This document shows, one piece after another, positions 6,902-64,000 of a DNA stretch of 64,000 bases; positions within the stretch are counted from its first letter, which is position 1; each line of letters starts with the position of its first letter. The stretch lies in contig CAWEGE010000014.1 in NCBI GenBank assembly GCA_963808525.1, positions 52,736 to 116,735 of the forward strand, given 5' to 3'. Position numbers and translations under genes: made by a program. Source of the DNA: an uncultured Alphaproteobacteria bacterium (GTDB lineage Bacteria > Pseudomonadota > Alphaproteobacteria > Rhizobiales > Beijerinckiaceae). Below the pieces are notes generated by a model, which did not search any database, was not told the DNA's origin, and worked only from the letters and a program-made list of their open reading frames with translations.

Positions 6902-8197
6902 TCAATCCCGCCCCGCAATCCGCTCCACTTCGGCGCCGCAGGCCGAGAGCTTCTTCTCCAGGCGCTCGAAGCCGCGGTCGAGGTGATAGACGCGGTTGAT
7001 CGTCGTCTCGCCCTTGGCGACGAGACCGGCGATGACGAGCGAGACCGAGGCGCGCAGATCGGTCGCCATCACTTGCGCGCCCTGCAATTCCTCGGCGCCC
7101 GTGACGATCGCGCTGTCGCCTTCCAGGCGAATGCGCGCGCCGAGACGCGCGAGCTCCTGCACATGCATGAAGCGGTTCTCGAAGATCGTCTCGGTGATGC
7201 GCGAGACGCCGTCGGCGCGCGTCATCAGCGCCATGAACTGCGCCTGAAGATCAGTCGGGAACAAGGGGAAGGGCGCGGTGCGGACGTCGACGGGCGCAAG
7301 CCCCGACCCGTTGCGCACGACGCGCAGCCCGGAGTTCGTCTCGGTGACCTCGGCGCCGGCCGCTTTCAAGGAGTCGAGCGCCGCCTGCAGCAGATTTGCG
7401 CGCGCGCCGGTGAGGTGAACGTCGCCGCCAGTCATGGCCACGGCCATCGCATAGGTGCCGGCTTCGATTCTGTCGGGCAGCACGCTGTGCCAGGCGCCGT
7501 GCAAGGACGGCACGCCCTGGATCTCGACGGTCGATTGGCCCGCGCCCTTGATGCGCGCGCCCATCGCGTTGAGGCAATCGGCAAGATCGACGATCTCCGG
7601 CTCGCGCGCCGCGTTATGGAGCACGGTCGTTCCCTTGGCGAGCGCGGCCGCCATCAGCGCCATATGCGTGCCGCCGACCGTGACCTTCTCGAAGTCGATC
7701 TCGGCGCCGACGAGCCCCTTCTTGGCTTGCGCGACGACATAGCCGTTCTCGATCGCGATCTCCGCGCCGAGCTTCTCCATCGCCATGAGCAGCAGATCGA
7801 CCGGGCGCGTGCCGATCGCGCAGCCGCCGGGCAGCGAGACGCGCGCCTCGCCCATGCGGGCCAAGAGCGGCGCGAGCACCCAGAAGCTCGCGCGCATGCG
7901 TGAGACCATCTCATAGGGGGCGGTTGTGTCGACGATCTCGCGCGCGGTGAGCTGGACGGTGCGGCCAGCATCCGGCAAGGCGCCGGCGCGCTTGCCCGCG
8001 ATGGTGTAGTCGACCCCGTGATTGCTGAGTATGCGCTCGAGCTGCGACACATCGGCGAGCTGCGGCATGTTCTCGAGCGTGAGCGTCTCGCGCGTGAGGA
8101 GCGAGGCGATCATCAGCGGGAGAGCGGCGTTTTTGGCGCCGGAAATCGGGATGGCTCCCTTCAGCTCATGGCCGCCGACGATCTTGATCTTGTCCAT
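6902..8197 (-). CDS. murA: UDP-N-acetylglucosamine 1-carboxyvinyltransferase
   Basis: [21 protein letters not shown] (catalytic Cys), [16 protein letters not shown] and DLRAS motifs. Confidence 0.98.
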
Positions 8198-8354
8198 GCG
8201 TGTCCGTTCTTTGCTCTGGCGCGGCGGGCGGATCGCCGGCCCGCGCGGCTTCCTTGCGCCGCTTGAGATTGGCGCGCAACGCCTTGGCCCGCGCTTGCGC
8301 CTGCTCTTGCGCGCCCTGCCGCGCCGCGGATTCTTTAGCTTTTTCTGACATCAT
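8166..8354 (-). CDS. Small basic hypothetical protein preceding murA
   Basis: 62 aa; motif [14 protein letters not shown]; overlaps the murA start, an arrangement I recall from Hyphomicrobiales. Confidence 0.6.
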
Positions 8355-8460
8355 CGTGGCGATTTCGTGGGGGGAGGGTCTTTAGGCGCAATGGACCCGG
8401 CGCGGGTCCTAACCTTTAATCCGACCGTCCGATTAAACCGATAGCGGAGTTTCTTGAAGA

Positions 8461-9084
8461 TCAGACTGAGGAAGACCCCTCGTAGGGCAACCCATCATCT
8501 GAAAGCTGGGCGGAGAGCAGGCCAGCCAGATAATCTTCCATCTTCGTAAAGTCCAAATGCCCGGCATCCCATGCGCGATCAGCGTGCTTCAAGGCTTCTT
8601 CATAGCCTTCTCGGTTTTCTCTTATGCGCTCAGGAACGATTTTTCTGCCGGGCAGAAGCTTTCCTGATCTTGCACAAAGCAGATAATAGCAAACAGCCCT
8701 CGCCGTGCGGCCATTACCCTCAATGAATGGATGTATCCAGTTTAATCTCCATAAACCGTATGCCGCCAACTCTGTTTCAGACCAAACGTACCAATTTTCC
8801 TGAACCGTTGAAATAAACCTGTCCATCCAATCGTTAACTTCATTGAAGTGAGGGGGCTTATGATCCCCAACGTAAATTGGTTCATTTCTGAATTTGCCGC
8901 CAAATTGCGAAATATTCGCCACAGCCACGTGATTTAAGGCCCAAAGCATATATTTATCGAATGCAGTAGGTCCCTTTTTTAAACCAATTTCTATGCAATT
9001 TATGAGAAGCTCATACTGTCGATTTAGATTCTGCTCTTGTATTCTATCGTATAATTCTTGATCTTCCTGCTCCAACACAAACAT
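8461..9084 (-). CDS. Fic/DOC family protein (predicted AMP transferase)
   Basis: Canonical Fic motif HPFIEGNGRTAR; visibly AT-richer than its flanks. Confidence 0.92.
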   Translation of the reverse strand: MFVLEQEDQELYDRIQEQNLNRQYELLINCIEIGLKKGPTAFDKYMLWALNHVAVANISQFGGKFRNEPIYVGDHKPPHFNEVNDWMDRFISTVQENWYVWSETELAAYGLWRLNWIHPFIEGNGRTARAVCYYLLCARSGKLLPGRKIVPERIRENREGYEEALKHADRAWDAGHLDFTKMEDYLAGLLSAQLSDDGLPYEGSSSV

Positions 9085-24089: not shown

Positions 24090-26969
24090 ATGAGCGTCAT
24101 TAAAGAGATCGACTACGGCACTCCGGCCTCACAGTCTCAAAATATGGTGACTTTGACCATCGACGGTCAGTCGGTCACCGTGCCCGAAGGCACGTCGATC
24201 ATGCGCGCGGCGATGCAGATCGGCAATGAGATCCCCAAGCTTTGCGCCACCGACAGCATCAAGGCCTTCGGCTCCTGCCGCTTGTGCCTCGTCGAGATCG
24301 ACGGCCGCGGCGGTCTGCCGGCCTCATGCACGACGCCGGTTGCGGCGGGAATCAAGGTTCACACCCAGACGCCGCGCCTGAAGGCGGTCCGGCGCGGCGT
24401 GATGGAGCTCTATATCTCCGACCATCCGCTCGACTGTCTGACCTGCGCCGCCAATGGAGACTGCGAATTGCAGGACATGGCCGGAGCGGTCGGCCTGCGC
24501 GACGTCCGCTACGGCTATGACGGCGACAATCACGTCTTCGCGCGCAACAGCGGCGAAGCCAATTTCAAATGGCTGCCGAAGGACGAGTCGAACCCCTACT
24601 TCAGCTACGATCCGTCGAAATGCATCGTCTGCAATCGATGCGTGCGCGCTTGCGAGGAGGTGCAGGGCACCTTCGCGCTGACGATCTCCGGCCGCGGCTT
24701 CGAGAGCCGCGTCTCGCCCGGCATGTCGGAAGCCTTCATGGAGTCCGAATGCGTCTCCTGCGGCGCCTGCGTGCAGGCCTGCCCCACCGCGACGCTCATC
24801 GAGAAGTCGGTCGTCGCCGCTGGCCAGCCCGAGCATTCCGCGGTGACCACCTGCGCCTATTGCGGCGTGGGCTGCACCTTCAAGGCCGAGATGCGCGGCG
24901 AGGAAGTCATCCGCATGGTCCCCTGGAAGGACGGCAAGGCCAACCACGGCCACAGCTGCATCAAGGGCCGCTTCGCCTATGGCTATGCGCATCATCAGGA
25001 CCGCGTGCTCGAGCCGATGATCCGCGACAAGATCACCGAGCCTTGGCGCGTCGTCTCCTGGGAGGAGGCGATCGCCTTCACGGCGCGGCGCTTTAAGGAG
25101 GTCCAGGCCAAGTATGGCAAGGATTCCGTCGGCGTCATCACCTCCTCGCGCTGCACGAATGAGGAGAGCTATCTCGTCCAGAAGCTCGCCCGCGCGGGCT
25201 TCGGCAATAACAATACCGACACTTGCGCGCGCGTTTGCCATTCTCCGACGGGCTACGGCCTGAACCAGGCTTTCGGCACCTCGGCCGGCACGCAGGATTT
25301 CAACTCGGTCGACGAGGCCGACGTCATCGTGGTGATCGGCGCCAATCCGACCGACGCGCACCCGGTCTTCGGCTCGCGCATGAAGGCGCGGTTGCGCCAG
25401 GGCGCGAAGCTCATCGTCATCGATCCGCGCAAGATCGACCTCGTGCGCTCCCCGCACATCGAGGCCACCCATCATCTGCCGCTGAAGCCCGGCACGAATG
25501 TCGCCGTCGTGACGTCGATGGCGCATGTGATCGTCACCGAAGGGCTCGTGAACGAGAATTTCATTCGCGAGCGCTGCAACAAGGACGAGTATCAGGACTG
25601 GGCCGCTTTCGTCTCCGAGGAGCGCAACAGTCCCGAGGCGACAGAGAAATACACCGGCGTTCCCGCTGCGGAGCTGCGCGCCGCGGCGCGCCTCTACGCC
25701 ACGGGCGGCAATGGCGCGATCTATTACGGCCTTGGCGTCACCGAGCACAGCCAGGGGTCGACGACGGTCATGGGCATCGCCAATCTCGCGATGGTGACCG
25801 GCAATCTGGGCCGTCGCGGCGTCGGCGTGAATCCGCTGCGCGGACAAAACAATGTCCAGGGCTCCTGCGACATGGGCTCCTTCCCGCATGAGCTGCCGGG
25901 CTATCAGCACATCTCGAACGAGGCCGCGCGCGAGACCTTCGAGGCGGAATGGGGGGTCAAGCTCGATTCCGAGCCCGGCCTGCGCATCCCGAACATGTTC
26001 GACGCGGCGATCGAGGGCACGTTCAAGGGCCTCTATGTGCAGGGTGAGGACATTCTGCAGTCCGACCCGAACACCAAGCACGTGTCCGCGGGCCTCGCGG
26101 CCATGGATCTCGTCGTCGTGCAGGACCTTTTCCTCGTCGAGACGGCGAATTACGCCCATGTGTTCCTGCCGGGCGCGACCTTCCTCGAGAAGGACGGCAC
26201 CTTCACCAACGCCGAGCGCCGCATTCAGCTCGTGCGCAAGGTGATGAGCCCGCAGAACGGCTATGGCGACTGGGAGATCACCCAGCTCATCGCCCAGGCC
26301 ATGGGTCTCGACTGGAACTATAAGCACCCGAGCGAGATCATGGACGAGATCGCGCGGCTCACCCCGAGCTTCCGCCGCGTTTCCTACCAGCGTCTCGAGG
26401 AGGAAGGCTCGGTGCAGTGGCCGTGCAACGACGAGCACCCGCATGGCGTGCCGATCATGCACATCGACAAATTCGCCCGCGGCAAGGGCAAGTTCGTCAT
26501 CACCGAATATGTGCCGACCGACGAGAAGACCGGACCGCGATTCCCGCTGCTGCTCACGACGGGGCGCATCCTCTCGCAATACAACGTCGGCGCGCAGACG
26601 CGACGCACCGATAATAGCAGCTGGCATCCCGAGGACGTGCTGGAGATCAACCCGCACGACGCCGAGGAGCGCGGGGTCAAGGACGGCGACTGGGTGCGCG
26701 TGCAGAGCCGCGCCGGCGAAGCCTCACTGCGCGCCAAGATCAGCGAGCGCATGGCGCCGGGCGTCGTCTACACGACGTTCCATCATCCGCAGAGCCAGGC
26801 GAACGTCATCACCACCGACAATTCCGACTGGGCGACAAACTGTCCGGAATATAAAGTGACGGCGGTGCAGGTGTCGCCGACGAACGGCCCGTCCGAATGG
26901 CAGGAGAAATACGCCGCCCTGTCGGAGGCGAGCCGCCGCATCAACTCCGGGGTCGAAGCCGCGGAATGA
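24090..26969 (+). CDS. fdsA: Formate dehydrogenase alpha subunit (Mo-bisPGD)
   Basis: NuoG-like FeS clusters, TCAYCGVGC, active-site CARVCH (Cys, not Sec) and LRGQNNVQG. Confidence 0.97.
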   Translation: MSVIKEIDYGTPASQSQNMVTLTIDGQSVTVPEGTSIMRAAMQIGNEIPKLCATDSIKAFGSCRLCLVEIDGRGGLPASCTTPVAAGIKVHTQTPRLKAVRRGVMELYISDHPLDCLTCAANGDCELQDMAGAVGLRDVRYGYDGDNHVFARNSGEANFKWLPKDESNPYFSYDPSKCIVCNRCVRACEEVQGTFALTISGRGFESRVSPGMSEAFMESECVSCGACVQACPTATLIEKSVVAAGQPEHSAVTTCAYCGVGCTFKAEMRGEEVIRMVPWKDGKANHGHSCIKGRFAYGYAHHQDRVLEPMIRDKITEPWRVVSWEEAIAFTARRFKEVQAKYGKDSVGVITSSRCTNEESYLVQKLARAGFGNNNTDTCARVCHSPTGYGLNQAFGTSAGTQDFNSVDEADVIVVIGANPTDAHPVFGSRMKARLRQGAKLIVIDPRKIDLVRSPHIEATHHLPLKPGTNVAVVTSMAHVIVTEGLVNENFIRERCNKDEYQDWAAFVSEERNSPEATEKYTGVPAAELRAAARLYATGGNGAIYYGLGVTEHSQGSTTVMGIANLAMVTGNLGRRGVGVNPLRGQNNVQGSCDMGSFPHELPGYQHISNEAARETFEAEWGVKLDSEPGLRIPNMFDAAIEGTFKGLYVQGEDILQSDPNTKHVSAGLAAMDLVVVQDLFLVETANYAHVFLPGATFLEKDGTFTNAERRIQLVRKVMSPQNGYGDWEITQLIAQAMGLDWNYKHPSEIMDEIARLTPSFRRVSYQRLEEEGSVQWPCNDEHPHGVPIMHIDKFARGKGKFVITEYVPTDEKTGPRFPLLLTTGRILSQYNVGAQTRRTDNSSWHPEDVLEINPHDAEERGVKDGDWVRVQSRAGEASLRAKISERMAPGVVYTTFHHPQSQANVITTDNSDWATNCPEYKVTAVQVSPTNGPSEWQEKYAALSEASRRINSGVEAAE

Positions 26970-28332: not shown

Positions 28333-30455
28333 ATGTTCGCTAAGGGCGCTCGCGATCCCGCCTCCACTTTCGCCCAAGCGACGCCGCCGCAGGCCGAGCG
28401 CAAGCCGACGCAGCGCCAGTTCCACGGACGCCTCGTCGAAGACGATTACGCGTGGCTCGCGGCGGAGAACTGGCGCGAGGCCTTGCGCGATCCCCGCGCC
28501 CTGCCCCGCGATATCGCAAGCCTGCTCGAAGCCGAGAACGTTCATTGCGCGGCGGCGCTCGCGCCCGCCAAGATGCTGCGCGAGACACTCGCGTCGGAAA
28601 TGCGCGCGCGCATCAAGGAAGATGACGCAGAGCCGCCCACGCCGGACGGCCCTTACTCCTACTACCAGCGCTATCGTGAAGGCGCGGAACATTCGCTCTA
28701 TTGCCGGCGCCCGCGCGGCGGCGGCGAAGAGGAGGTTCTCCTCGATGGCGAGGCTCTCGCCAAGGGCCGGGAGTTTTTCGAGATCGGCGACGCCGCGCAT
28801 ACGCGCGATCACGGCGCGCTCGCCTGGAGCCTCGACGACAAGGGCTCAGAACTCTACGCCATCCGCACGCGCAGCTTGAGCGACGGACGTGACCGCGCCG
28901 ACATCGTTCGCGACACGGACGGCTCCATCGTCTGGAGCCGCGACGGCTCGAGCTTTCTTTACGTTCGCGTCGACGAGGACCACCGCACAAACGCAGTTCT
29001 CCTTCACAAGGTCGGCTCCTCGCAGCGCAAGGATCAAGTGTTGATCGAGGAGCGCGATCCGGCCTGGTTCGTGTCGCTCGGCGAGAGCCGCTGCGGACGC
29101 TTCGCCGTCGTCACGATCCACGGTCACGACGCGAGCGAATGCCATCTGATCGACCTTGTCGATACGGACGCCCCGCCGCGCCGGGTCGCCCCGCGCGAAA
29201 ACGGTCTGCGCTACGAGGTCGAGCCGCACGGCGACCAGCTTTTCATCCTCGCCAATGCCGAAGCCGCCGAGGACTTCGCGATTTTTTCGGCGCCGCTGAG
29301 CTCCATATCGCGCGCGGATTGGCGCGCCGTCGTTGCGCATCGCAAAGGCCGAATGCTTGTCGCGATGACCGTCTATGCGCGTCATCTTGTCTGGATCGAA
29401 CGCGAGAACGCGCTGCCGCGTCTCGTCATCCGCGAGATCGAAAGCGGCGCCGAGCACGCCATTGACTTCGCGGAAGAGGCCTATTCGCTGGAGCTCGCGC
29501 CCGGCCTGGAGTTCGAGACAACAACGCTGCGCTTCGTTTATTCCTCGCCGACGACGCCCGACGAGACGTACGACTACGACATGATGACGCGCGAGCGCGC
29601 TCTCATCAAACGCCTGGAGATTCCAAGCGGCCATGACCCGAGAAACTATGTCGCGCGCCGCAGCTCGGCGAAGGCTTTAGATGGCGAGAGCGTGCCGATC
29701 ACGCTCCTGTATCGCAAGGAGTTCGTGCCCGGCGAAGGCGCGCCGCTTCTGCTTTATGGCTATGGCGCCTACGGCGACTCGCTCGACGGGGAATTCGATT
29801 CCGACGTGCTCTCGCTCGTTGATCGCGGCTTTGTTTATGCGCTCGCGCATGTGCGCGGCGGAACGGAGCGCGGCTGGAGCTGGTACGAGAACGGCAAGCT
29901 CGAGCATAAGACGAACAGCTTTTCCGATTTCATCGCCTGCGCGCTGCGCTGATCGAGCGGGCTTCACGCGCGAGGGACGATCGTCGCGCAGGGCGGCTCG
30001 GCCGGCGGCCTGTTGATGGGCGCCATCGTCAACATGGCGCCGGAGCTTTTCGCCGGCGTCATCGCCGAGGTGCCCTTCGTCGACGCGTTGAACACGATTC
30101 TGCGCGCCGACCTGCCGCTGACACCCCCCGAGTGGCTCGAATGGGGCAATCCGATCGAGGATACAGAGGCCTTTGACCGCATCGCGGGCTATTCCCCCTA
30201 CGACAACGTCAAGGCGCAACGCTATCCGCCGATTTGGCGCTCGCCGGATTGACAGATCCGCGCGTGACCTATTGGGAGCCGTTAAAGTGGGTGCAAAAGT
30301 TGCGCGCGACAATGACGGGCGGCGGGCCCGTGCTCCTCAAGACTCAAATGGGCGCGGGACACGCCGGCGCCTCGGGCCGCTTCAAGTCTCTGGAGGAGAC
30401 CGCGCTGGAATGGGCCTTCGCGCTGATGTGCGTGGGATTGGACAAGAGCGCGTAA
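28333..30455 (+). CDS. ptrB: Oligopeptidase B (S9A), frameshifts near 29940-29985 and 30232
   Basis: DDYAWL, LLYGYGAYG and HVRGG; catalytic GGSAGG at about 29993; EWGNP; GLTDPRVTYWEP; GHAG His. The 30232 break is a missing T in ATTTTGG. Confidence 0.9.
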
Positions 30456-55039: not shown

Positions 55040-56428
55040 ATGCTCTTTCGCGCCGCCCTGCTCTTCCTGCTGCTCGCTTCTGGCCCCCCCGCGCTGGCGC
55101 AGGAGCCGCAGCCCGTCCCCGCTGCGCCGCCCGAGGCGGGCGCGCTTCCGCCCTCCCCGCTGGAGACGAAGCTCGCAGGGTTTCGCGCGAAACTCCCCAC
55201 GGTGTCGCGTGAAACCGCGCCAGCTGAATGGGGCAGACTGCAGTTCGAGATCGGAGACGCGCTCATCCTTTTGGGCCAGCGCGAACGGTCCCCCGCAAAG
55301 GTCCAGGAGGGTGTCGCGACGCTGCGCGAGGCGCTGACCGCGCTCACCAAGGAGCGCGAGCCGCGCGCGCGGGCCCTGGCGCAGACGGCGCTCGCCAACG
55401 CCCTGCTTGAGCTCGCGAGGGAGGAGCACGGCGGCGCGGAGCCTCTCGATGAGGCAGCCGCGCTCTATCAGGAGGCGATCGCGGCCCTTCCCTTCGAGAC
55501 GGAGGCCAAAGACCGCGCGCGCGCGCAGCATAATCTCGGCGTGGCCCTGATGCGGCTCGGTGACCGCGAGGCGGGAACGGCGCGCTATAAAGAAGCGATG
55601 CAGGCCACTGAAGCGTCGCTCTCCGCGCGCGCCTTCGAGCGCGAGCCGCTCGAATGGGCCTCCTCGCAAGAGAGCCTCGGCCTCATCTACAGTCGCATCT
55701 TCGAGCGCGACGGCGACAAGGACACGCTGCGCAAAGCCGCTGACGCCTATGCCCATGCGCTGAAGGGCTATACTCCGGACCGGACCCCCGCCGCCTGGGC
55801 GCAGACCGAGGACAATCTCGGCCGCACGCTCTTGAAGCTTGGAGAGGCGGAGGGCTCGATGCAGCTGCTCGGCGAAGCGCAAGCGCATTTTCGCGAGGCG
55901 CTGCGGGTCTTCTCGCGCAAGCGCAATGCGCTGCAATGGTTCGCGACCATCCAGAATCTCGGGCTCGCGCTGGAATTGGCGAGCCAGCACTCCCAGGACA
56001 GCGCGCCACTCGACACGGCCGTCGCCATGTGGCGCGAGGCAGTCGAGGCCGTGCCCCGCGAGCGAGCGCCCTTTCAATGGGCGATCGCGCAGTCGAGCCT
56101 TGCCCACGCCCTGCAGACGCGCGGCGAGAAATTCGAGCGCATCGAGGATCTGAAGGAGGCCGTCGCGGCCTACACCCAGGCGCTCGAGGCAAGCCCGCGC
56201 GAGCGCAATCCGCAGCTTTGGGCCTCGACGCGCAACAACCTCGGCGTCGCGCTGAAAGCGCTAGGCAAACGCGAGAATGGGACACAATCCCTCACCGCCG
56301 CGGTCGCGGCCTTCGACGACGCGCTCGGCGTCTGGACAGAGGACAAGGCCCCAGAGCTGCGCAAGACGGCGCAGGACAACCGCGCCAAGGCGCAGGCGAT
56401 AATCGAGGAACGCAAGGGCTCGAAGTGA
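55040..56428 (+). CDS. Exported TPR-like repeat protein (about 40-aa RE..P..WA..Q.NLG.AL repeats)
   Basis: Signal peptide; repeats such as PDRTPAAWAQTEDNLG, RERAPFQWAIAQSSLA and RERNPQLWASTRNNLG. Confidence 0.85.
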   Translation: MLFRAALLFLLLASGPPALAQEPQPVPAAPPEAGALPPSPLETKLAGFRAKLPTVSRETAPAEWGRLQFEIGDALILLGQRERSPAKVQEGVATLREALTALTKEREPRARALAQTALANALLELAREEHGGAEPLDEAAALYQEAIAALPFETEAKDRARAQHNLGVALMRLGDREAGTARYKEAMQATEASLSARAFEREPLEWASSQESLGLIYSRIFERDGDKDTLRKAADAYAHALKGYTPDRTPAAWAQTEDNLGRTLLKLGEAEGSMQLLGEAQAHFREALRVFSRKRNALQWFATIQNLGLALELASQHSQDSAPLDTAVAMWREAVEAVPRERAPFQWAIAQSSLAHALQTRGEKFERIEDLKEAVAAYTQALEASPRERNPQLWASTRNNLGVALKALGKRENGTQSLTAAVAAFDDALGVWTEDKAPELRKTAQDNRAKAQAIIEERKGSK

Positions 56429-56466
56429 CGCTCTCGACCGCGGAGCGTGAAGCGGGGCTTCGGCGC

Positions 56467-57486
56467 ATGCTCAAAAATTGGATCTTTTTCCTCCTCGCTC
56501 TCGGCGCGGTTACGGTGACGCCAGCCGCATGCGCCGCGGAAAGGACCGTCACCGGAACGGCGAACTATCGCGAGAGGATAGCCCTCCCGCCGACAGCGCG
56601 TTTCGAAGCGGTCATTCTCGATGTAGCCCGCGCGGACGCGCCGGCCGTCGTTCTCGCGCGGACCACGATCAACAATCCCGGCCAGCCGCCGATCCGCTTT
56701 GCGGCGACCTATGACGACGCGAAGCTCGACCCGCGCGCGCGTCATGTGGTGCGCGCGACGGTGACGGTGGACGGGACGCTCTGGTTCACCACCGACACTT
56801 CGACTCCCGTCGTCACCGGCGGCGACGCTCGCGTCGACCTCCTATTGCGCCGCGTTGGCGCTTCGGAAACGCGGGGGAAGGCGGCCCCGGCTCTGGACGG
56901 AGCCGGCCTCCTCGGCGGCGCCTTTCGCTATTTCGCGGATGCTGCGACCTTCACGCTTTGCCGCAGCGGAGAGGAGCTCCCTGTCGCCATGGAGGGCGCC
57001 TATCGGGATCTGGAGGAGGCCTACGCCGCCAAGCGCACCGCGCCGGCCGCGCCGCTCTATGTGATGATCGAGGGTGCGATTGAGCCGCGCGCGGGCATGG
57101 AGGGGCCGCCCCGACCGACCATCGTCGTCAGACGGTTCCTGGCCGCCTGGCCCGGAGAAAAGTGCGAGCGCAATCGCTCGAACGCTGCGCTCGCGAACAC
57201 CTATTGGCGGATCGCGGTCCTCAAGGGGGAAACGCTCGCCGCGGTCGAGGGCCATCCCGAGGCGAACCTCATTCTGCGCACGGACCCTGAGCGGCAGGCG
57301 TCGGCCACCGCCGGCTGCAATCGGATGGTGGGAACCTATGAGACGAGGGAAGGCGGAGGGCTGACGTTTGGCCGTTTCGCCAGCACGAGGATGGCCTGCC
57401 CACCGCCGCTCGACGCTCGCGAGCGGGCGCTCGCAGATGTTCTTGCAGCGACCCGTGAATATGCGATCGAAGGACCGGCGCTATGA
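56467..57486 (+). CDS. YbaY-like + NlpE-C-like + META (HslJ) multidomain exported protein
   Basis: VTGTANYRERIALPP (YbaY), FRYFADAATFTLC (NlpE C-terminal-like) and GCNRMVG.Y...FASTRMAC (META). Confidence 0.8.
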   Translation: MLKNWIFFLLALGAVTVTPAACAAERTVTGTANYRERIALPPTARFEAVILDVARADAPAVVLARTTINNPGQPPIRFAATYDDAKLDPRARHVVRATVTVDGTLWFTTDTSTPVVTGGDARVDLLLRRVGASETRGKAAPALDGAGLLGGAFRYFADAATFTLCRSGEELPVAMEGAYRDLEEAYAAKRTAPAAPLYVMIEGAIEPRAGMEGPPRPTIVVRRFLAAWPGEKCERNRSNAALANTYWRIAVLKGETLAAVEGHPEANLILRTDPERQASATAGCNRMVGTYETREGGGLTFGRFASTRMACPPPLDARERALADVLAATREYAIEGPAL

Positions 57487-57571
57487 CGACCAGCGCGAGC
57501 CGCTCGCCGTGCTTCGGGACGCCGCGCTGCGGTGACATGCCGGCGCAACGCTAAGCTAGTTCAAAACGGCT

Positions 57572-57685
57572 TCAACGCCTGTGTCGGCCAGGTATCTTGG
57601 CGCAGATTTCGACATAAACGATGGCGGCGGCCAACATCACCAGGGCGATAAAGAGGCACTGTTTGAGATAGCTCGGCTTACGCAC
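57572..57685 (-). CDS. 37-aa single-TM small protein
   Basis: GGGAG RBS, GTG start; MRKPSYLKQCLFIALVMLAAAIVYVEICAKIPGRHRR; below the ORF-track cutoff. Confidence 0.4.
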   Translation of the reverse strand: MRKPSYLKQCLFIALVMLAAAIVYVEICAKIPGRHRR

Positions 57686-58005
57686 TTCTTTTGCTCCCGA
57701 CTGAGCGTTTCAAGCATCTTTGGCCGGGTTTCGCTAGATACACCCCGGGTCGGAGGTAACTGTCTCCAATTTCCCGGCTCCGCAAGGCTGCGGCGCGCCG
57801 ATCCTCGCCCAATACTGACGGGACGCCTTGCCTATTCTCCCCAGGTATCGGCTTCCCCCCGGGCGCGTCCGCGTGATGCCCCTTTTGCTCCCGCTAACCT
57901 TTGACGCGAAACTGGGCCCCGAATGTCTGGCCGCTTGCTTGGCAATTGCTTCAACCGCGAAGACATAAAATGGCGCATCCACCGCCATCTGCATCCACCC
58001 GCCGT

Positions 58006-58519
58006 TCACCCGCGCTTTCGCCAAAAAGCCCAGGCCGCGAGTTCCGAGAACGCCGCGCAGAGCAGCGCACTCCAGGCCGCAAGGCTGAGGCCTAAGACGA
58101 GCAGCGCCGGCTCGTCGCAGCGGATGGGCTTCACGAGTTTCAGCCGCGCCAGGAAGTCCGCGTGGGAAGCGGGCGGAAGTCCCGCCCGTGCACTCGGGGG
58201 GCCCCGACCAGAACTTCCATTCGACGCCGGCGTGGTAGGCGGCGATCCCCGCGCCTGCGAGAAAGATCAGCGCCAGCGCCGGCAGACCCTTGCGCGCGAG
58301 GTCTTCACGTCCCCTCGCGGACAGGAGAACGCAGAGCGCCGCGACGCCCATGCCGAGATAATAGGGCTTTCGCCCCAGCAGGCAGAGCTCGCAGGGGAGA
58401 TAGCCCAGGGCCTCGAAGCTCCAGGCGCCGGCGATGGTCGCCGCCGCGCCGAGCAGGATCGCGAGCGCGACCGCCCCGGCCGGGCGCTTTTGGAGCTGCG
58501 CGACGAGCGCCGCGATCAA
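58006..58519 (-). CDS. dsbB: Disulfide bond formation protein B family, frameshift near 58175
   Basis: YLPCELCLLGR (CxxC), AAYHAGVEWKFW.GP.EC; C-terminus PIRCDEPALVVLGLSLAAWS in the next frame, TGA at 58006. Confidence 0.85.
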
Positions 58520-59097
58520 AACAGCTTCACCGCAATGACGAAGCCGCCGACGACGATCGCGGCGAGCGATCCGATGAACAGGCCGAAATGCGCCTCCATC
58601 CTCTCGCGCAAATGGTCGCCGAAACGATTGAGAGCCGCGGCGATGATGAAGAAGCGCCCGCCGCGCGTGATCAGCGCAAGCAGCATGAACAAAGGAAAAT
58701 TATAGTGAAACAGCCCCGAGAAGATCGTCACGAGCTTGAAGGGAATGGGCGTCAGGCCCTTGAGCAGGATGAAGAGCGCGCCCCATTTCGCGTAAAACTC
58801 GCGCATGGCGACCATCTTGTCTTCGTATCCGTAAAGATGGATGAGCCAATGCCCCACCGTGTCGTAAAGCAACGCGCCGATCGCGTAGCCGAGCGCGCCG
58901 CCGGCCACCGAGGCGAGCGTGCAGATCGCCGCATAACGCCAAGCCTTGGCGGGCGTGGCGAGGGACATGGGAAGGAGAATCATCTGCGGGCGGCACGGGA
59001 AGAAGGAGCTCTCCGCAAAAGCAATGGCTGCGAGCGCCCACTCGGCATGCGGACCGTGGGCGAGCTTGAGCGTCCAGTCATAGAGCTTCTTCATCAT
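58516..59097 (-). CDS. YqaA/DedA (SNARE-associated) membrane protein
   Basis: AFAESSFFP, ASVAGGALGY, TPIPFKLVTI..G and RGGRFF motifs; compensating indels near 58990. Confidence 0.9.
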   Translation of the reverse strand: MMKKLYDWTLKLAHGPHAEWALAAIAFAESSFFPCRPQMILLPMSLATPAKAWRYAAICTLASVAGGALGYAIGALLYDTVGHWLIHLYGYEDKMVAMREFYAKWGALFILLKGLTPIPFKLVTIFSGLFHYNFPLFMLLALITRGGRFFIIAAALNRFGDHLRERMEAHFGLFIGSLAAIVVGGFVIAVKLF

Positions 59098-59258
59098 GGG
59101 GGACCGTTAGCACCTGGGACCAGTCGAGAAAAGCGCGTCCGGCCGCGAACTTTCTTTTTTGGGATGATCGACTTCAGTCCCTGTTTCCTGATTCAGCCAC
59201 GATTGCGGCGTATCGCGCCGCGCGTGGGGAGCTTCACAGAATCAGGAGGACAAACTCC

Positions 59259-59737
59259 ATGACGTCGCGCCGTAAATCGGGGAGCGCCGCCGCGCGCCTC
59301 GCGATCGCCGCTTTCGCTTTCACGCTTTCGGGCGCCGCCATGGCCGCCGATTACTACGGGCCAGGACCGCAGCCGGGACCCTCGGTCGGTCCAGACTATC
59401 CACCCCGCCGCCGCAATCCTACCCACAGCCGCAATCCTATCCGCCGCCTCCCGTCGTCGTCGAGCCGGTCGGCTACCCCTATCTCTGGGGCGGCCAACGC
59501 TATTGCTGGTACGATGACGCCTGGAACGGCCCCGGCTGGTACTGGTGCGGCGCCGCCTGGCGACAGGGCTACGGCTGGGGCGGGCCCTATGGCTGGAATC
59601 GCTGGGTCTGGAACGGCTGGCGGGGATGGCGCGGCTGGGGCGGCGCTTGGCGTCCGGGCGCCGGCGGCGCTTGGCGCGGCGGACCGGGCTGGCGCGGCGG
59701 ACACGGCGGCGGCTGGCATGGCGGCGGCTGGCGCTAA
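59259..59737 (+). CDS. Exported Trp/Gly/Arg-rich protein, frameshift near 59403
   Basis: GGAGG RBS; signal peptide. After removing one C: PPPQSYPQPQSYPPPPVVVEPVGYPYLWGGQRYCWYDDAWNGPGWYWCGAAWRQGYGWGG...GGHGGGWHGGGWR*. Confidence 0.75.
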
Positions 59738-59757
59738 CGCAAGCCTAAAGCTCAAAG

Positions 59758-59785
59758 AAAAACCCGGCCGCGCGCCGGGTTTTTT
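59758..59785. terminator. Bidirectional-type intrinsic terminator
   Basis: AAAAACCCGG-ccgcgcg-CCGGGTTTTTT. Confidence 0.75.
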
Positions 59786-59946
59786 GCGAGCGGCTCGACG
59801 GGAAAAGCTCAAGAAAGCGCGGGCCGCCGCTTTTGCCTAAAAATCTCCTAACAAAAGGGCGAGAGTGGCGTCCGCCGGCAACTCAGGGGAGGTGCGCCTC
59901 CCGCGCTCAAATCAATTACACCCTCGCCGGCGGAATGGGGGACGCC

Positions 59947-60288
59947 ATGCTTAAACTTGAGAGTCTCATTCCTTGTTGGCACGTCGCGCAAGAGCGCTTG
60001 TTGGAGCGCCGTTCCTATGCCGACGAAGGCGACGCCGGACGGGCGATCTTTGCACTCGTGGCGCTTGCGGCGGAGCTTACCGGATTGAACGGCACGCCCC
60101 TGCACGAGCGGCTCGAGCGGCTTTGGGAGGCGGAGGAGGACCGCTCGGGGGAACGCGACCGATTCAGCGAGATCGTGACCGAGGAGCTTTTCTCCGTCGG
60201 CTTCACCTTTTTCCCCAACTCTGCGGCGGAGCTTGTAGAGAAGATCGCAAACCGGCTCGAACGCGAAATCTGCTGCCTCGCGGCTTGA
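59947..60288 (+). CDS. Hypothetical protein
   Basis: GGGGGA RBS; 113 aa; acidic and helical; no recognised motif. Confidence 0.55.
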   Translation: MLKLESLIPCWHVAQERLLERRSYADEGDAGRAIFALVALAAELTGLNGTPLHERLERLWEAEEDRSGERDRFSEIVTEELFSVGFTFFPNSAAELVEKIANRLEREICCLAA

Positions 60289-60307
60289 GCGGAAAGGGAT
60301 CGCGGCT

Positions 60308-60415
60308 CTATCGGAGCAGCAGTGCCGCGACCCTTCCGGCGAAGAAGCAGGCGAGGAGGAACGGGGCGTAACGCATTGCAAAAAGCATCACCAACTGCGT
60401 GTCCGGACCCTGCAT
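60308..60415 (-). CDS. 35-aa hydrophobic small protein
   Basis: Strong RBS GGAGGAG; MQGPDTQLVMLFAMRYAPFLLACFFAGRVAALLLR; below the ORF-track cutoff. Confidence 0.55.
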   Translation of the reverse strand: MQGPDTQLVMLFAMRYAPFLLACFFAGRVAALLLR

Positions 60416-60493
60416 GACGCTCCTCCATTTTCTTGAAGAGACGAATTCGCGACGCTCGATTCGAGTCGCATCTTCAGTGAACGGCAATTGCGG

Positions 60494-60509
60494 TTAACGC
60501 GGGGTTAAC
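60494..60509. promoter_or_regulatory. Consensus CtrA box
   Basis: TTAA-cgcgggg-TTAAC; two GANTC sites (GATTC, GAGTC) at about 60458-60467. Confidence 0.65.
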
Positions 60510-60767
60510 CCGTCCCCGGCCCGATCGGTTTCCGCCCGGCCGGCGGCCTCGGCGGCCTCGATCGCCGTGCAGGCCAGCGCGGAAATTCGATTTCTAAGAT
60601 AGCCGAATGAATTGTGCGCGAAGAAGGCGAGCCGGAGGCTCGCGGTCCTGCGAGGTCGCCTTATTGGCGCAGCCGCGCTCCTTGCGCAAATTCCAGCGAG
60701 CTGGTTTTTGTTTCGGCCACCTGGAGGAAGCCCGGGCTTCGAAACAGCGTCAGCGCCGGGGGAACCG

Positions 60768-61079
60768 ATGGGCTGGATCATTCTTCTTCTCGCGGGAATT
60801 TTCGAGATCGTCTGGGCCGTGGCGCTGAAATATTGGGGCTTCGGCAAACCCCTGCCCTCGGCCGGCATTCTTGCGGCCATGGCGGCGAGCGCCGGGCTCC
60901 TGAGCCTCGCCCTGCGGACGCTTCCGGTCGGAACGGCGTATGCGATCTGGACGGGCATCGGCGTCGCGGGGACCACGGCGCTCGGCCTCTATCTCTTCGA
61001 CGAGCCGGCGACGCCTTTGCGTCTGGGCTGCATCGGGCTCATCCTCTTGGGGATGATCGGGTTGAAGCTCGCTTCCTGA
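60768..61079 (+). CDS. sugE: SMR family guanidinium exporter (SugE/Gdx type)
   Basis: LAGIFEIVWAVALK (E13/W16), LPVGTAYAIWTGIG, EP....RL..I.LI..G..GLKL; 103 aa. Confidence 0.88.
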   Translation: MGWIILLLAGIFEIVWAVALKYWGFGKPLPSAGILAAMAASAGLLSLALRTLPVGTAYAIWTGIGVAGTTALGLYLFDEPATPLRLGCIGLILLGMIGLKLAS

Positions 61080-61091
61080 CCCGCCACGCCG

Positions 61092-61228
61092 CGTCATTGC
61101 GAGCGAAACAAAGCAATCCAAGGCAGCGTCGAAAATCGATCTCAGCGCGCCAATGCCCGCTGGCGGAAGCCAACTCCATGGTCACGCCCACTACTCCTGG
61201 ATTGCTTTGCTTCGCTCGCAATGAAGGG
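61092..61228. repeat. REP-like element with long terminal inverted repeats
   Basis: CGTCATTGCGAGCGAAACAAAGCAATCCA ... TGGATTGCTTTGCTTCGCTCGCAATGA. Confidence 0.85.
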
Positions 61229-61249
61229 ACGCCAATTTCCCGCTATTCC

Positions 61250-62368
61250 TCAAAAATAACTTTCCAACCTTCCGCGCCGGCGCACGTCCAGCGTCGCGCA
61301 ATGGAAGGCTCCGCCGAAGGCCGCATAATGCAGGAAGGGACAGGGAATGGGCTCCAATCCCCAATCCTTCATCGCCTGCATGGTGCGCTTGTGATGCGGA
61401 TCAACGAAGACGCGTTTCTCGTCGAGCATCAGGACATTCATGTTGAGCCATTTGCCGCACATCGAAGTGAGCTTGAGAAGCGCGTCCTCGATCGGATCGG
61501 GCTCCGGCGCGATCAATATCTCCCATTTCTTCATGATCGGCGGCAGCACGTCGATGTCGACATATTCCGGATTGACGAGAAAGCGGCCGGGACCGAGCGG
61601 CAAGACGGTCGTGTCGATATGCATCGGCATGCGGCAGCGGCTCGGCACCTCATGGATCCGATACTCTTCGCCCAGATGTCGACGCAGCCAGTCGATCCCG
61701 AAGGCGTTGGTCACATTGCTACGCGTGACGAAAATGTCGCGCCCGCAGCGAAAGAAATCGGCGGCGTCGAAGACCGGCTCGAACTCGGTCAGTATGTAGC
61801 GGATCGGCTCGCCGGCCTCGGGGAGCGTGAAGCTCGGATCATAGAGATCGTCCTGAAGCTGCGGCTTTGGTGCCGCAGTCCAGCGCGCGCCGCGCTTGAA
61901 ATAATCCTTGATGAGAGCGCGGTAGGAATGCGTTTCGAAATAGCGGCAGGGCCAGGCCATCGGCGTCTCGATGATCTCCTCGCCGATGACGAGCAGGCTG
62001 TCGCGCGGGCAGCTGTTGCAAAAACCGCGCGACGACCAGCCCGGCGCGCCGAACTTTTGGCGATAGTCGACGGCGTCCGGCCGCCGCACGATCACGCCGA
62101 GCGATCCGAGCAGCGCGATGAAGCCGTCGAGCTCGCGCTGCGCGGGCTTCACCAGAATCTGCGGATAGCGAAAGCCGCTGGCGAGAGCCTGCGCTCGGGC
62201 GGCGAGGCCCGGAATGTTGCAGGAGACGATCGCGTGATCGGAGGGAATGGTCGCGCCCTCGAGGCGGCCGACAATGATCTCCTCCAGCGGATCCCATTCA
62301 TTGTGCGAACAGACGGGCGAAGGCGCCACTCCAGCGTCAAGCGAAGCGTCGCGCACGCGCTCATGCAT
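61250..62368 (-). CDS. L-arginine-dependent amidinotransferase (AGAT/StrB1-like)
   Basis: SHNEWDPLEEIIVG, CPRD, FDAADF (Asp), MHIDT (His), GGAFHCATLD (Cys), ESYF terminus; GGAGG RBS before ATG 62368. Confidence 0.93.
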   Translation of the reverse strand: MHERVRDASLDAGVAPSPVCSHNEWDPLEEIIVGRLEGATIPSDHAIVSCNIPGLAARAQALASGFRYPQILVKPAQRELDGFIALLGSLGVIVRRPDAVDYRQKFGAPGWSSRGFCNSCPRDSLLVIGEEIIETPMAWPCRYFETHSYRALIKDYFKRGARWTAAPKPQLQDDLYDPSFTLPEAGEPIRYILTEFEPVFDAADFFRCGRDIFVTRSNVTNAFGIDWLRRHLGEEYRIHEVPSRCRMPMHIDTTVLPLGPGRFLVNPEYVDIDVLPPIMKKWEILIAPEPDPIEDALLKLTSMCGKWLNMNVLMLDEKRVFVDPHHKRTMQAMKDWGLEPIPCPFLHYAAFGGAFHCATLDVRRRGRLESYF

Positions 62369-62459
62369 TTTGTCGTCCTCCCCGAAGACTGACGTTTCCA
62401 ATGCTCCGCTATGGCAAGGGAAGCGCGCGGCGCCAAGCCGGGAAGTTGACGCATCTCAT

Positions 62460-62740
62460 TCAAAATCTCGGGATCAGGCGCCAGCCCACTCTTTTTTCAT
62501 AATCGGCATGGCCGGGCAGAGTTTCTCGATAAATTCTTTTTGTCGAGAAGACGCCAGACGAGCGCGGAAAGTATCAGCCGAGCGCGAGTGGGATGCACAG
62601 CAGCATGAAGAAGGCGGCCGCATACATTGGATAGCGCGAGAGCGCATAGGGTCCGCTCGAGACGACCCGCTGGCCCTGCGCCATCTCGATCGTGCTCGCG
62701 GCCCAGGGATTTTCTCGAAGGACGAGGAACATCGTGCGCG
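62460..62740 (-). pseudogene. C-terminal remnant of an isoprenylcysteine carboxyl methyltransferase (ICMT/PEMT) family gene
   Basis: LRENPWAASTIEMAQGQRVVSSGPYALSRYPMYA...PLALG* then ALVWRLLD...LPGHADYEKRVGWRLIPRF*; in-frame stop, frameshifts and no N-terminal half. Confidence 0.75.
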
Positions 62741-62952
62741 CAGCGCCAAGCTTGGCATGGAGGAGAACTCCGCGGCTTAGACAGCGGCAAAAGGCTCTGA
62801 CTTGCGATGCAAATAGGGGACCCGTGACAAGCGAACCAGCATTCGCCAAAGCATCGCTTGACACGCTATCTCGCCGTTCCACGTCGACCAGGTGGTCGCG
62901 ATCGCAGACGCCACGCTGAACGATCGCCCGGCGGGATTGAGGGAGACGAGGC

Positions 62953-63195
62953 ATGCGCGCGCTGGCTATAATTTTCTTGAGTTTAGCCGTGACGCCTGCG
63001 GTAGGCGATACTACGAAATTGACGGCGTTGCTCGCTCCCAGCGGGGCGACGGCTCCCTACTCTCCAATCGTCAAAGCCGGCGAATGCTTCACGAGCTGCT
63101 ACAGCGGAAGCGCGCGAAACGACTGCGCCTCAGGGCAGACGTGCAGCTGCTATTGCGATGGCAGCGGCCGAGCGATTTGCGAGATTTGCCGATAG
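62953..63195 (+). CDS. 80-aa exported peptide with eight C-terminal cysteines
   Basis: GGGAG/GAGG RBS; signal peptide ending AVG-D; CFTSCYSGSARNDCASGQTCSCYCDGSGRAICEICR. Confidence 0.75.
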   Translation: MRALAIIFLSLAVTPAVGDTTKLTALLAPSGATAPYSPIVKAGECFTSCYSGSARNDCASGQTCSCYCDGSGRAICEICR

Positions 63196-63199
63196 GGCG

Positions 63200-64000
63200 C
63201 TACTTTCCCTTCGGAAATTCGAGCCCCATTTCGCGGTAGCGCTCCGGATCGTCCGCCCAGTTCTCGCGAACCTTCACGAAGAGAAAGAGGTGGATCTTCT
63301 GGTCGGCGGCCTCCGCGATCTCGGCGCGCGCGGTCTGGCCGATCGCCTTGATCGTGCGGCCGCCCTCGCCGATCGTGATTTTCTTCTGTCCGTCGCGCGT
63401 GACATAGATCGTCTGCTCGACCTTCGCCGAGCCGTCCTTCTGGTTCGTCCAAGAGGTCGTCTCGACAGTCGATTCATAGGGCAATTCGTCGTGCAACCGC
63501 TCGAAGAGTTTTTCGCGCGTGATCTCGGCGGCGAGCATGCGCAGCGGCGCGTCCGAGAGCTGGTCTTCCGGATAGAGCCAGGGCGAGAGCGGCATCGCGG
63601 GCGCGAGCCGCGTCCGCAGCCGGTCGAGCCCGTCGCCCTTCTGCGCCGAGATCATGAAGGTTTCTTCGAAGTTTTGCGCTTCGTTGAGTTCCTTAGCGAG
63701 GGCGAGCAGGCGCTCGCGCGCCACGACGTCGACCTTGTTCAGGACGAGCCATTTTGGCGCGGGACTCTGGATCAATTGCTGGATCAGCGCCGAAACCTCC
63801 GCATCCGCGCCCTTGCGCGCGTCGACAATGAGCAGATTGAGGTCGGCGTCCTTGGCGCCGGACAGCGCACTCGCGACCATGGCGCGGTCGAGCCGGCGCT
63901 TGGGGGCAAAGATCCCCGGCGTGTCGACGAGCACGATCTGAGTCAGGCCTTCGATCATCACCCCGCGCACCTGAGCGCGCGTGGTCTGCGCCTTGCGCGA
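63200..64000 (-). CDS. era: GTPase Era (5' end outside the window)
   Basis: QTTR (G2), VDTPGIF (G3), LNKVD (G4), ISA, and KH domain with ELPY and LFLFVKV. Confidence 0.97.
   Translation of the reverse strand, partial: SRKAQTTRAQVRGVMIEGLTQIVLVDTPGIFAPKRRLDRAMVASALSGAKDADLNLLIVDARKGADAEVSALIQQLIQSPAPKWLVLNKVDVVARERLLALAKELNEAQNFEETFMISAQKGDGLDRLRTRLAPAMPLSPWLYPEDQLSDAPLRMLAAEITREKLFERLHDELPYESTVETTSWTNQKDGSAKVEQTIYVTRDGQKKITIGEGGRTIKAIGQTARAEIAEAADQKIHLFLFVKVRENWADDPERYREMGLEFPKGK

Follow-up and report, generated by a model that had tools for sequence, protein, structure and literature searches.

A gene for a stand-alone amidinotransferase (AT) and a gene for a small multidrug resistance (SMR) exporter of the Gdx/SugE type lie next to each other in a stretch of 64,000 nucleotides from an uncultured alphaproteobacterium (contig CAWEGE010000014.1, positions 52,736 to 116,735), which at its full length is called the window below. 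In other genomes the same two genes adjoin each other far above chance frequency. Because the pair occurs in two gene orders, in several classes of bacteria and on a plasmid, a functional link is the simplest reading, and we consider it highly probable. New here is the linkage of a known enzyme family with a known exporter family in a conserved, mobile module; both families were already annotated. As to the nature of the link, we tentatively favor the view, at somewhat below an even chance, that the AT produces a small cationic guanidine and that the exporter clears it from the cell.

Exporters of guanidine are common among bacteria, as are guanidine riboswitches, of which there are four classes, and the bacterial source of the exported guanidine is named as a major gap in reviews (PMC12186494, PMC12623156). 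The gene pair is a candidate endogenous source of Gdx substrates and as such bears on the question of the origin of guanidine. It also defines a sub-lineage of Gdx exporters that is marked by a cysteine at residue 12, is free of riboswitches and may have a substrate other than plain guanidinium. Finally, the linkage provides a likely physiological setting for a highly conserved clade of stand-alone ATs, of which we know no studied member.

Conservation of the gene pair

When each species was scanned in one genome, 440 relatives of the window AT came to light, of which the best 80 loci (56 non-Streptomyces, 24 Streptomyces) were kept. Among these 80 of 440, a gdx gene was found convergent and just downstream in 49 of the 54 assessable non-Streptomyces loci. 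The gap between the two genes was 12 to 210 bp in 46 of the 49. No SMR gene was present within 6 kb at any of the 24 Streptomyces loci, where cobalt transporters and other unrelated genes were the neighbors, and five alphaproteobacterial AT loci likewise showed neither an SMR gene within 6 kb nor a substitute transporter. At three loci (L001, L002 and L010) unrelated genes are placed between AT and gdx (7233-8537 at L001, 7235-10621 at L010). They code for a secreted beta-propeller protein, a tetratricopeptide-repeat glycosyltransferase and an outer-membrane beta-barrel, with the pair still within 1.4 to 3.8 kb. The inserted genes are mutually unrelated and were rejected as parts of the module.

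The linkage was also assayed from the side of the exporter. Starting from the Gdx genes of the Methylocystis type, i.e. the sub-lineage with Cys12, an AT was adjacent in 36/36 assessable loci. The more distant SMR loci of this reverse scan had no AT beside them (0/43), nor had other Gdx loci sampled across bacteria (0/80), the Gdx-Clo locus included.

The independence of the adjacency was judged by comparing 3 kb on both sides of the pair at 59 loci, which fell into 17 groups without detectable flank similarity between them. In the window the pair is flanked by Era-PEMT on one side and DedA-DsbB on the other, an arrangement shared with M. bryophila, while the flanks are rplT-rpmI and pirin in Methylocystis sp. 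SC2 and PEP carboxylase and BioB in Methylosinus. In Bradyrhizobium sp. CB82 (L321, 214768-216244) the order is groES-groEL-AT-sugE, with a Cys12 exporter, on the 900-kb conjugative plasmid pCB82_1. A second Bradyrhizobium plasmid (L320) carries an AT beside IS66 elements and without an exporter. None of the 17 neighborhoods had a third gene conserved beside the pair, and no biosynthetic family was conserved around the AT across 80 + 72 loci.

A second gene order emerged from a sister clade of ATs that was retrieved with a 55%-identical representative. At six loci of this clade, from metagenome-assembled genomes of two Methylothermaceae, three Anderseniella and one planctomycetote (Planctomycetota), gdx is located directly upstream of the AT on the same strand, with a gap of about 35 to 120 bp and unrelated flanks. 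Such a two-gene operon fits a make-and-export or a make-and-protect design. The first-pass annotation, which was made from the window alone, had proposed a two-gene module and had raised the question whether the adjacency is repeated in other genomes. It is, and the two gene orders, the 17 unrelated neighborhoods and the outcome of the reverse scan uphold the module as such.

Judging by record titles, both AT clades seem conspicuous in methane oxidizers of two classes, one represented by Methylocystis, Methylosinus and Methylocella, the other by Methylothermaceae and Methylomarinum. Binatia have them as well, and so do non-methanotrophs such as Bradyrhizobium, Beijerinckia, Anderseniella, Streptomyces and cyanobacteria.

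The amidinotransferase

The open reading frame (ORF) of the AT spans 61250-62401 on the minus strand. The ATG at 62368 (MHERV...) is the start that agrees with the relatives, so that the gene was set to 61250-62368 with 372 aa plus stop. This assignment draws on a sequence search of the PDB and on the clade alignment. The PDB search returned SxtG (6u1r) with an E-value of 4e-125, HsvA with 3e-97, human AGAT with 1e-92 and StrB1 with 2e-75, and the alignments to these solved amidinotransferases cover the full length (residues 12-372). The catalytic residues Asp201 (61766-61768), His250 (61619-61621) and Cys357 (61298-61300; all minus strand) correspond to the triad Asp254-His303-Cys407 of human AGAT (PMC3684758). 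This triad is invariant in the 49 linked enzymes and the 24 Streptomyces relatives of the clade alignment. Asp170 and Asp305 of AGAT hold the guanidino group of the substrate; their equivalents in the AT, Asp123 and Asp252, are both present and clade-invariant. As a member of this family, the window AT is predicted to use arginine as the amidino donor and an amine as the acceptor.

Several residues differ from those of AGAT. Tyr269 of the AT occupies the site of Arg322, and Met167 is replaced by Cys; both exchanges are invariant within the clade. In glycine amidinotransferases the binding of the acceptor is shaped by Asn300 and Met302 of the 300-flap. The 300-flap of the window enzyme reads Cys245-Arg-Met-Pro-Met249 with Met at positions 300 and 302. 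Across the clade the flap is Cys-Pro-Asn-Pro-Met in 41/49 linked enzymes and Cys-Arg-Thr-Pro-Met in Streptomyces, and the enzymes of the operon type have Gln300. In the alignment columns no residue separated Gdx-linked from unlinked ATs across both clades, the best-ranked columns tracking phylogeny.

Identity within the AT clade is 72-90% from Alphaproteobacteria to Streptomyces, and conservation this high suggests that its members all carry out one defined reaction. The orthologues in Methylocystis, Methylosinus, Methylocella, Beijerinckia, Bradyrhizobium and Streptomyces are annotated as 'amidinotransferase' or 'glycine amidinotransferase'. The first-pass annotation had placed the module in a type of organism not known to make and export such compounds; the gene family as such, with annotated orthologues this widespread, is not unusual there. 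Pfam-A gave no match for the AT at E<=0.01, and the sole NCBIfam match was a weak one to dimethylargininase. The Pfam field was empty for all 120 listed AT homologues as well; domain-based annotation thus misses a well-characterized enzyme family. In a neighbor-joining tree the clade of the window AT is the sister group of SxtG-like sequences, which agrees with the proteobacterial origin of sxtG (PMC2684587).

The Gdx-type exporter

The gdx/sugE-type gene (60768-61079, plus strand) codes for 103 aa plus stop and contains the motif GIFEIVWAVALKY. The protein matched the SMR family of Pfam (PF00893) with E 2e-24 over profile positions 1-92 of 93. SugE was the top NCBIfam model with 107.9 bits, which is below its curated equivalog cut-off of 126 bits, while Qac models reached at most 50 bits. 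In the PDB it matched Gdx-Clo with 1.6e-26 (95.7 bits) versus 4e-7 (33.4 bits) for EmrE.

Trp16, Ala17 and Met39 mark Gdx proteins, where EmrE has Gly, Thr and Tyr (PMC9000954). The window exporter kept this trio as Trp16, Ala17 and Met38, the numbering being shifted by one after loop 1, which is one residue shorter. The hydrogen-bond stack Ser42/Tyr59/Trp62 and Lys101, completely conserved in Gdx (PMC7695847, PMC9000954), are present as Ser41/Tyr58/Trp61 and Lys100. The membrane-embedded Glu13 (60804-60806) and a GXG fulcrum (G63-I64-G65) are present as well. The positive-charge bias is small (2 versus 3) and the gene is single, as expected for a dual-topology homodimer. Thus the protein groups with the Gdx subtype and not with EmrE/Qac, and its Gdx hallmarks predict that it would export guanidinium in a proton-coupled manner.

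The stop codons of the two convergent genes are separated by 170 bp (61080-61249). In all these respects, i.e. an intact amidinotransferase with a Cys-His-Asp triad, an SMR protein of the SugE/Gdx and not of the EmrE/Qac type, and a convergent arrangement at 170 bp, our results and the first-pass annotation agree.

The linked exporters as a sub-lineage

In a neighbor-joining tree a single split set 47 of the 49 exporters of the convergent type apart from 78 other Gdx, and the latter include Bradyrhizobium Gdx genes with riboswitches. Pairwise distances of the ATs and of their partner exporters correlated with r = 0.86, a value that none of 2000 Mantel permutations reached.

Residue 12, which is located beside Glu13, is Cys in 46/49 exporters of the convergent type and Ala or Ser in 6/6 of the operon type. 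A small residue at this position was found in 1 of 121 unlinked SMRs from two control samples, and the signal held in both of them. The window exporter is exceptional in having Phe12 (TTC, 60801-60803), whereas its 85-89% identical relatives at L001 and L002 have Cys. A single-base change from TGC to TTC would account for the difference, and Phe12 may mark a reversion toward plain guanidinium export. The main Methylocystis exporter group deviates at further positions conserved in Gdx (A17L, K101R and G66S in addition to Cys12), whereas the window copy is canonical at 17, 66 and 101. Val or Ala at position 61 was considered as another signature, being present in 53/55 linked exporters compared to Ile in 77/78 controls. 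It was dropped because the controls had partly been retrieved via the peptide AYAIWTGI, which fixes Ile61, and because Ala or Val occurs in many unlinked SMRs of the second sample.

Guanidine riboswitches (Rfam guanidine-I to -IV) were searched for in the window from 56000 to 64000 at E<=1, in 11 linked loci at the gathering score and in the 6 operon-type loci at E<=1. None was found upstream of the AT-linked exporters (0/18, window included). The only Rfam match in 56000-64000 was at chance level and away from the block upstream of gdx described below. The same scan of control Gdx loci without an AT detected a riboswitch in 11/20, ten belonging to class II and the remaining one to class I (Fisher's exact p = 2e-4). 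Control by a guanidine riboswitch is a typical though not a defining trait of the Gdx subtype. The absence of riboswitches fits either an expression of the exporter that is tied to the enzyme or a cargo that riboswitches do not see.

Both genes are transcribed in relatives of the window: contigs assembled from RNA-seq of a pure culture and from a metatranscriptome of sediment cover both genes of a 94%-identical Methylocystis, although neither levels nor strand are readable from them. The window sequence itself was present only in DNA runs of soil metagenomes and in no RNA run of a run search.

Proposed function and alternatives

We propose that the cytosolic AT would load its active-site cysteine with the amidino group of L-arginine, with release of ornithine, and would then hand this group to an amine acceptor. 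The Gdx-type SMR protein, acting as a proton-coupled antiporter, would expel the resulting small cationic guanidine. The latter could be the intended product or an unavoidable, toxic by-product that arises when ammonia, methylamine or hydroxylamine attacks the S-amidino intermediate. S-amidino-cysteine is an isothiourea, and by chemical reasoning small amines that reach it yield guanidines, i.e. guanidine from ammonia, methylguanidine from methylamine and hydroxyguanidine from hydroxylamine. The cargo would accordingly be guanidinium or a small mono-substituted guanidinium, rather than guanidinoacetate or homoarginine. We infer a shared metabolite behind the linkage, export as the direction of transport and the nature of the cargo.

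Several points weigh against this proposal. The main weakness is that the acceptor of the AT is not readable from its sequence. The AGAT-like flap with Asn300 and Met302 of 41/49 linked enzymes is compatible with an amino acid such as glycine or lysine as the acceptor, and ammonia has to our knowledge not been reported as an acceptor for the amidinotransferase family. Given the Streptomyces and the five alphaproteobacterial loci, the AT can work without an adjacent exporter. The genes of the window type are convergent and hence not co-transcribed. As many of the loci are closely related, fewer independent events underlie the counts than their size suggests, and the p-values overstate independence.

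A stronger form of the proposal, which is possible but rather doubtful, takes the AT as a dedicated synthase that makes a small guanidine from arginine and ammonia, methylamine or hydroxylamine for deliberate secretion through its own exporter. The gene pair is prominent in methanotrophs of two classes (Methylocystis, Methylosinus and Methylocella; Methylothermaceae), and methanotrophs form hydroxylamine when methane monooxygenase oxidizes ammonia. That classical transamidinases accept hydroxylamine serves as a lead only. Such a synthase might serve the scavenging of hydroxylamine followed by export, or it might supply neighboring microbes with guanidine, which is rich in nitrogen. If true, it would constitute a non-oxygenase biological route to free guanidines.

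Among the alternatives, an indirect coupling survives best, and still we regard it as unlikely. Here the product of the AT would be cleaved to free guanidine by a second, unlinked enzyme, e.g. a hydroxylase of homoarginine or arginine, and Gdx would protect the cell. Known guanidine routes are of this kind, such as the ethylene-forming enzyme and the homoarginine-6-hydroxylases of plants (PMC11018352, PMC12186494), and the window exporter resembles a plain guanidinium exporter. Yet, a third gene is conserved in none of the 17 neighborhoods and the two-gene operon suggests that two proteins suffice. Furthermore, with free guanidine as the signal one would expect at least some of the linked exporters to have a guanidine riboswitch, and none was found.

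Somewhat less likely still is an AT whose product, a guanidino acid such as guanidinoacetate or homoarginine, would itself be exported by the adjacent SMR protein. This was the product that the first-pass annotation had in mind, and we do not favor it because characterized Gdx proteins exclude guanidino metabolites with a polar tail such as arginine, agmatine and creatine (PMC7695847). In addition, guanidinoacetate has a net charge of zero, while SMR proteins exchange cations for protons, and the window exporter is canonical at every Gdx hallmark, including Phe12, Ala17 and Lys100. On the other hand, the flap of most linked enzymes, Cys-Pro-Asn-Pro-Met, has Asn300 and Met302 like the human enzyme acting on glycine and lysine (PMC4887976); position 300 of the window AT is Met and not Asn. 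JGI labels orthologues as 'glycine amidinotransferase', and the exchanges A17L, K101R, G66S and Cys12 in the main Methylocystis exporters make an altered selectivity conceivable.

The pair could also serve salvage, a view to which we give a lower chance again. The AT would make arginine from ornithine, with guanidino compounds of the environment, conceivably even guanidine, as the source of the amidino groups, while Gdx removes the excess; as a corollary, both genes would be parallel answers to external guanidine stress. The hosts are bacteria of soil and sediment, amidinotransferase reactions are reversible (PMC4887976), and gene sets under guanidine riboswitches often join exporters with assimilating enzymes (PMC12186494). 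Against salvage, neither a guanidine riboswitch nor another recognizable guanidine sensor was found, and the expected partner of a salvage enzyme is an importer, not an exporter. Nor are we aware of a report in which free guanidine serves as the amidine donor.

That the genes lack any functional link and are neighbors by descent or by hitch-hiking on a shared mobile segment is very unlikely: the window-type genes are convergent and not co-transcribed, the Streptomyces orthologues have no exporter nearby and most loci are from one family, Methylocystaceae, but the 17 unrelated neighborhoods, the second gene order in other classes and another phylum, the plasmid-borne pair, the 36/36 of the reverse scan and the distinct, riboswitch-free lineage of the linked exporters all speak against it.

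Non-coding elements, flanking genes and host

The spacer between the two genes contains a palindromic element of 129 nt (61095-61223, no strand assigned) with terminal inverted repeats of 25 nt, CATTGCGAGCGAA(A/G)CAAAGCAATCC. The repeat matches nowhere in the window but at these two arms, with an expected number of 0, and the folded RNA of the element has -70.4 kcal/mol with z = -7.1. It may be a two-way terminator or a small mobile or REP-like repeat (repetitive extragenic palindrome) of Alphaproteobacteria. Because the spacers of relatives are only 12-210 bp long, we do not regard it as a conserved part of the module; relatives with much shorter spacers are without it.

Upstream of gdx a block CTTGCGCAAATTCCAGCGAGCTGGTTTTTG (60681-60711, plus strand) is common to the window, L001, L002 and M. 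bryophila (L081) and absent from other subgroups. It is possibly a promoter, a reading of low confidence. A new shared leader upstream of gdx was considered and rejected, since the upstream similarity is restricted to close subgroups and has the look of a plain promoter. The result of a promoter and terminator scan was no better than chance.

The window has a G+C content of about 65%, and Methylocystis-like Alphaproteobacteria are its nearest matches. Its largest ORF (24090-26969, plus strand, 959 aa) encodes the molybdopterin-containing alpha subunit of formate dehydrogenase, consistent with a one-carbon-utilizing host and with the Methylocystis-like affiliation. With no ORF longer than 959 aa, the ORF survey revealed no gene of the size of a non-ribosomal peptide synthetase or a polyketide synthase in the 64 kb, as the first-pass annotation had observed. 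Genes of toxin pathways were likewise absent from the vicinity of the AT.

Upstream of the AT, a PEMT/ICMT-like methyltransferase gene (62474-62954, minus strand) is broken across three reading frames, and its usual C-terminal ...ADYEKRVGWRLIP is in another frame than the ORF of 126 aa. The counterpart in M. bryophila is an intact ORF of 225 aa. The split gene may be a pseudogene, or else the split stems from indel errors of a long-read metagenome assembly. The ORF of a prolyl oligopeptidase (28333-29952, plus strand) has a complete N-terminal propeller, but of the 213 positions of the S9 catalytic domain it covers just the first 50, which may be another frameshift or truncation in the assembly.

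Comparison with known systems

In the literature on amidinotransferases, guanidine, Gdx and methanotrophs we found no description of a linkage between AT and Gdx. The closest solved relative of the AT is SxtG (6u1r) with about 60% identity over the full length, the same Cys/His/Asp residues and the same aspartates at the guanidino site. However, SxtG belongs to a toxin cluster and acts on a cationic, arginine-derived aminoketone, whereas the window AT has no toxin genes nearby. The acidic pocket residues E58, E59, E255 and E276 of SxtG allow the binding of a cationic amine (PMC12371840). The AT lacks three of these four: the insert with E58 and E59 is absent, E255 is replaced by Met (Asn or Thr in relatives), and E276 is kept.

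AGAT, CyrA and AmtA share the fold family and the Cys-His-Asp mechanism with the AT (PMC3684758), which keeps Met302, while most of its relatives also have Asn300. The flap C-R-M-P-M of the AT differs from D-P-N-P-M in AGAT, D-M-H-P-M in AmtA and D-I-F-P-S in CyrA. As AmtA shows, the acceptor cannot be predicted from flap residues alone (PMC4887976). CyrA and AmtA are encoded in toxin clusters, whereas the window AT stands alone beside an exporter.

The window exporter is 55% identical to Gdx-Clo and has all the hallmark residues of Gdx-Clo and Gdx-Eco. It differs from these in the absence of a guanidine riboswitch and in its lineage, whose members almost always have an AT as partner and which is marked by Cys12. 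The cargo of Gdx-Clo comprises guanidinium, small or hydrophobic mono-substituted guanidiniums and guanylurea, while Gdx-Clo and its relatives bar a polar tail from the membrane portal (PMC7695847, PMC10829512).

The known bacterial sources of guanidine, i.e. the ethylene-forming enzyme, NapI and guanylurea hydrolase, are oxygenases or a hydrolase (PMC12186494). None of them is an amidinotransferase, and none is paired with Gdx in the reviews, which treat the gene neighborhoods of exporters and mention amidinotransferases solely for the synthesis of guanidinoacetate and homoarginine (PMC12186494, PMC12623156). If the exporter does remove a small guanidine made by the AT, the enzyme would add another bacterial route from arginine to a small guanidine that needs export.

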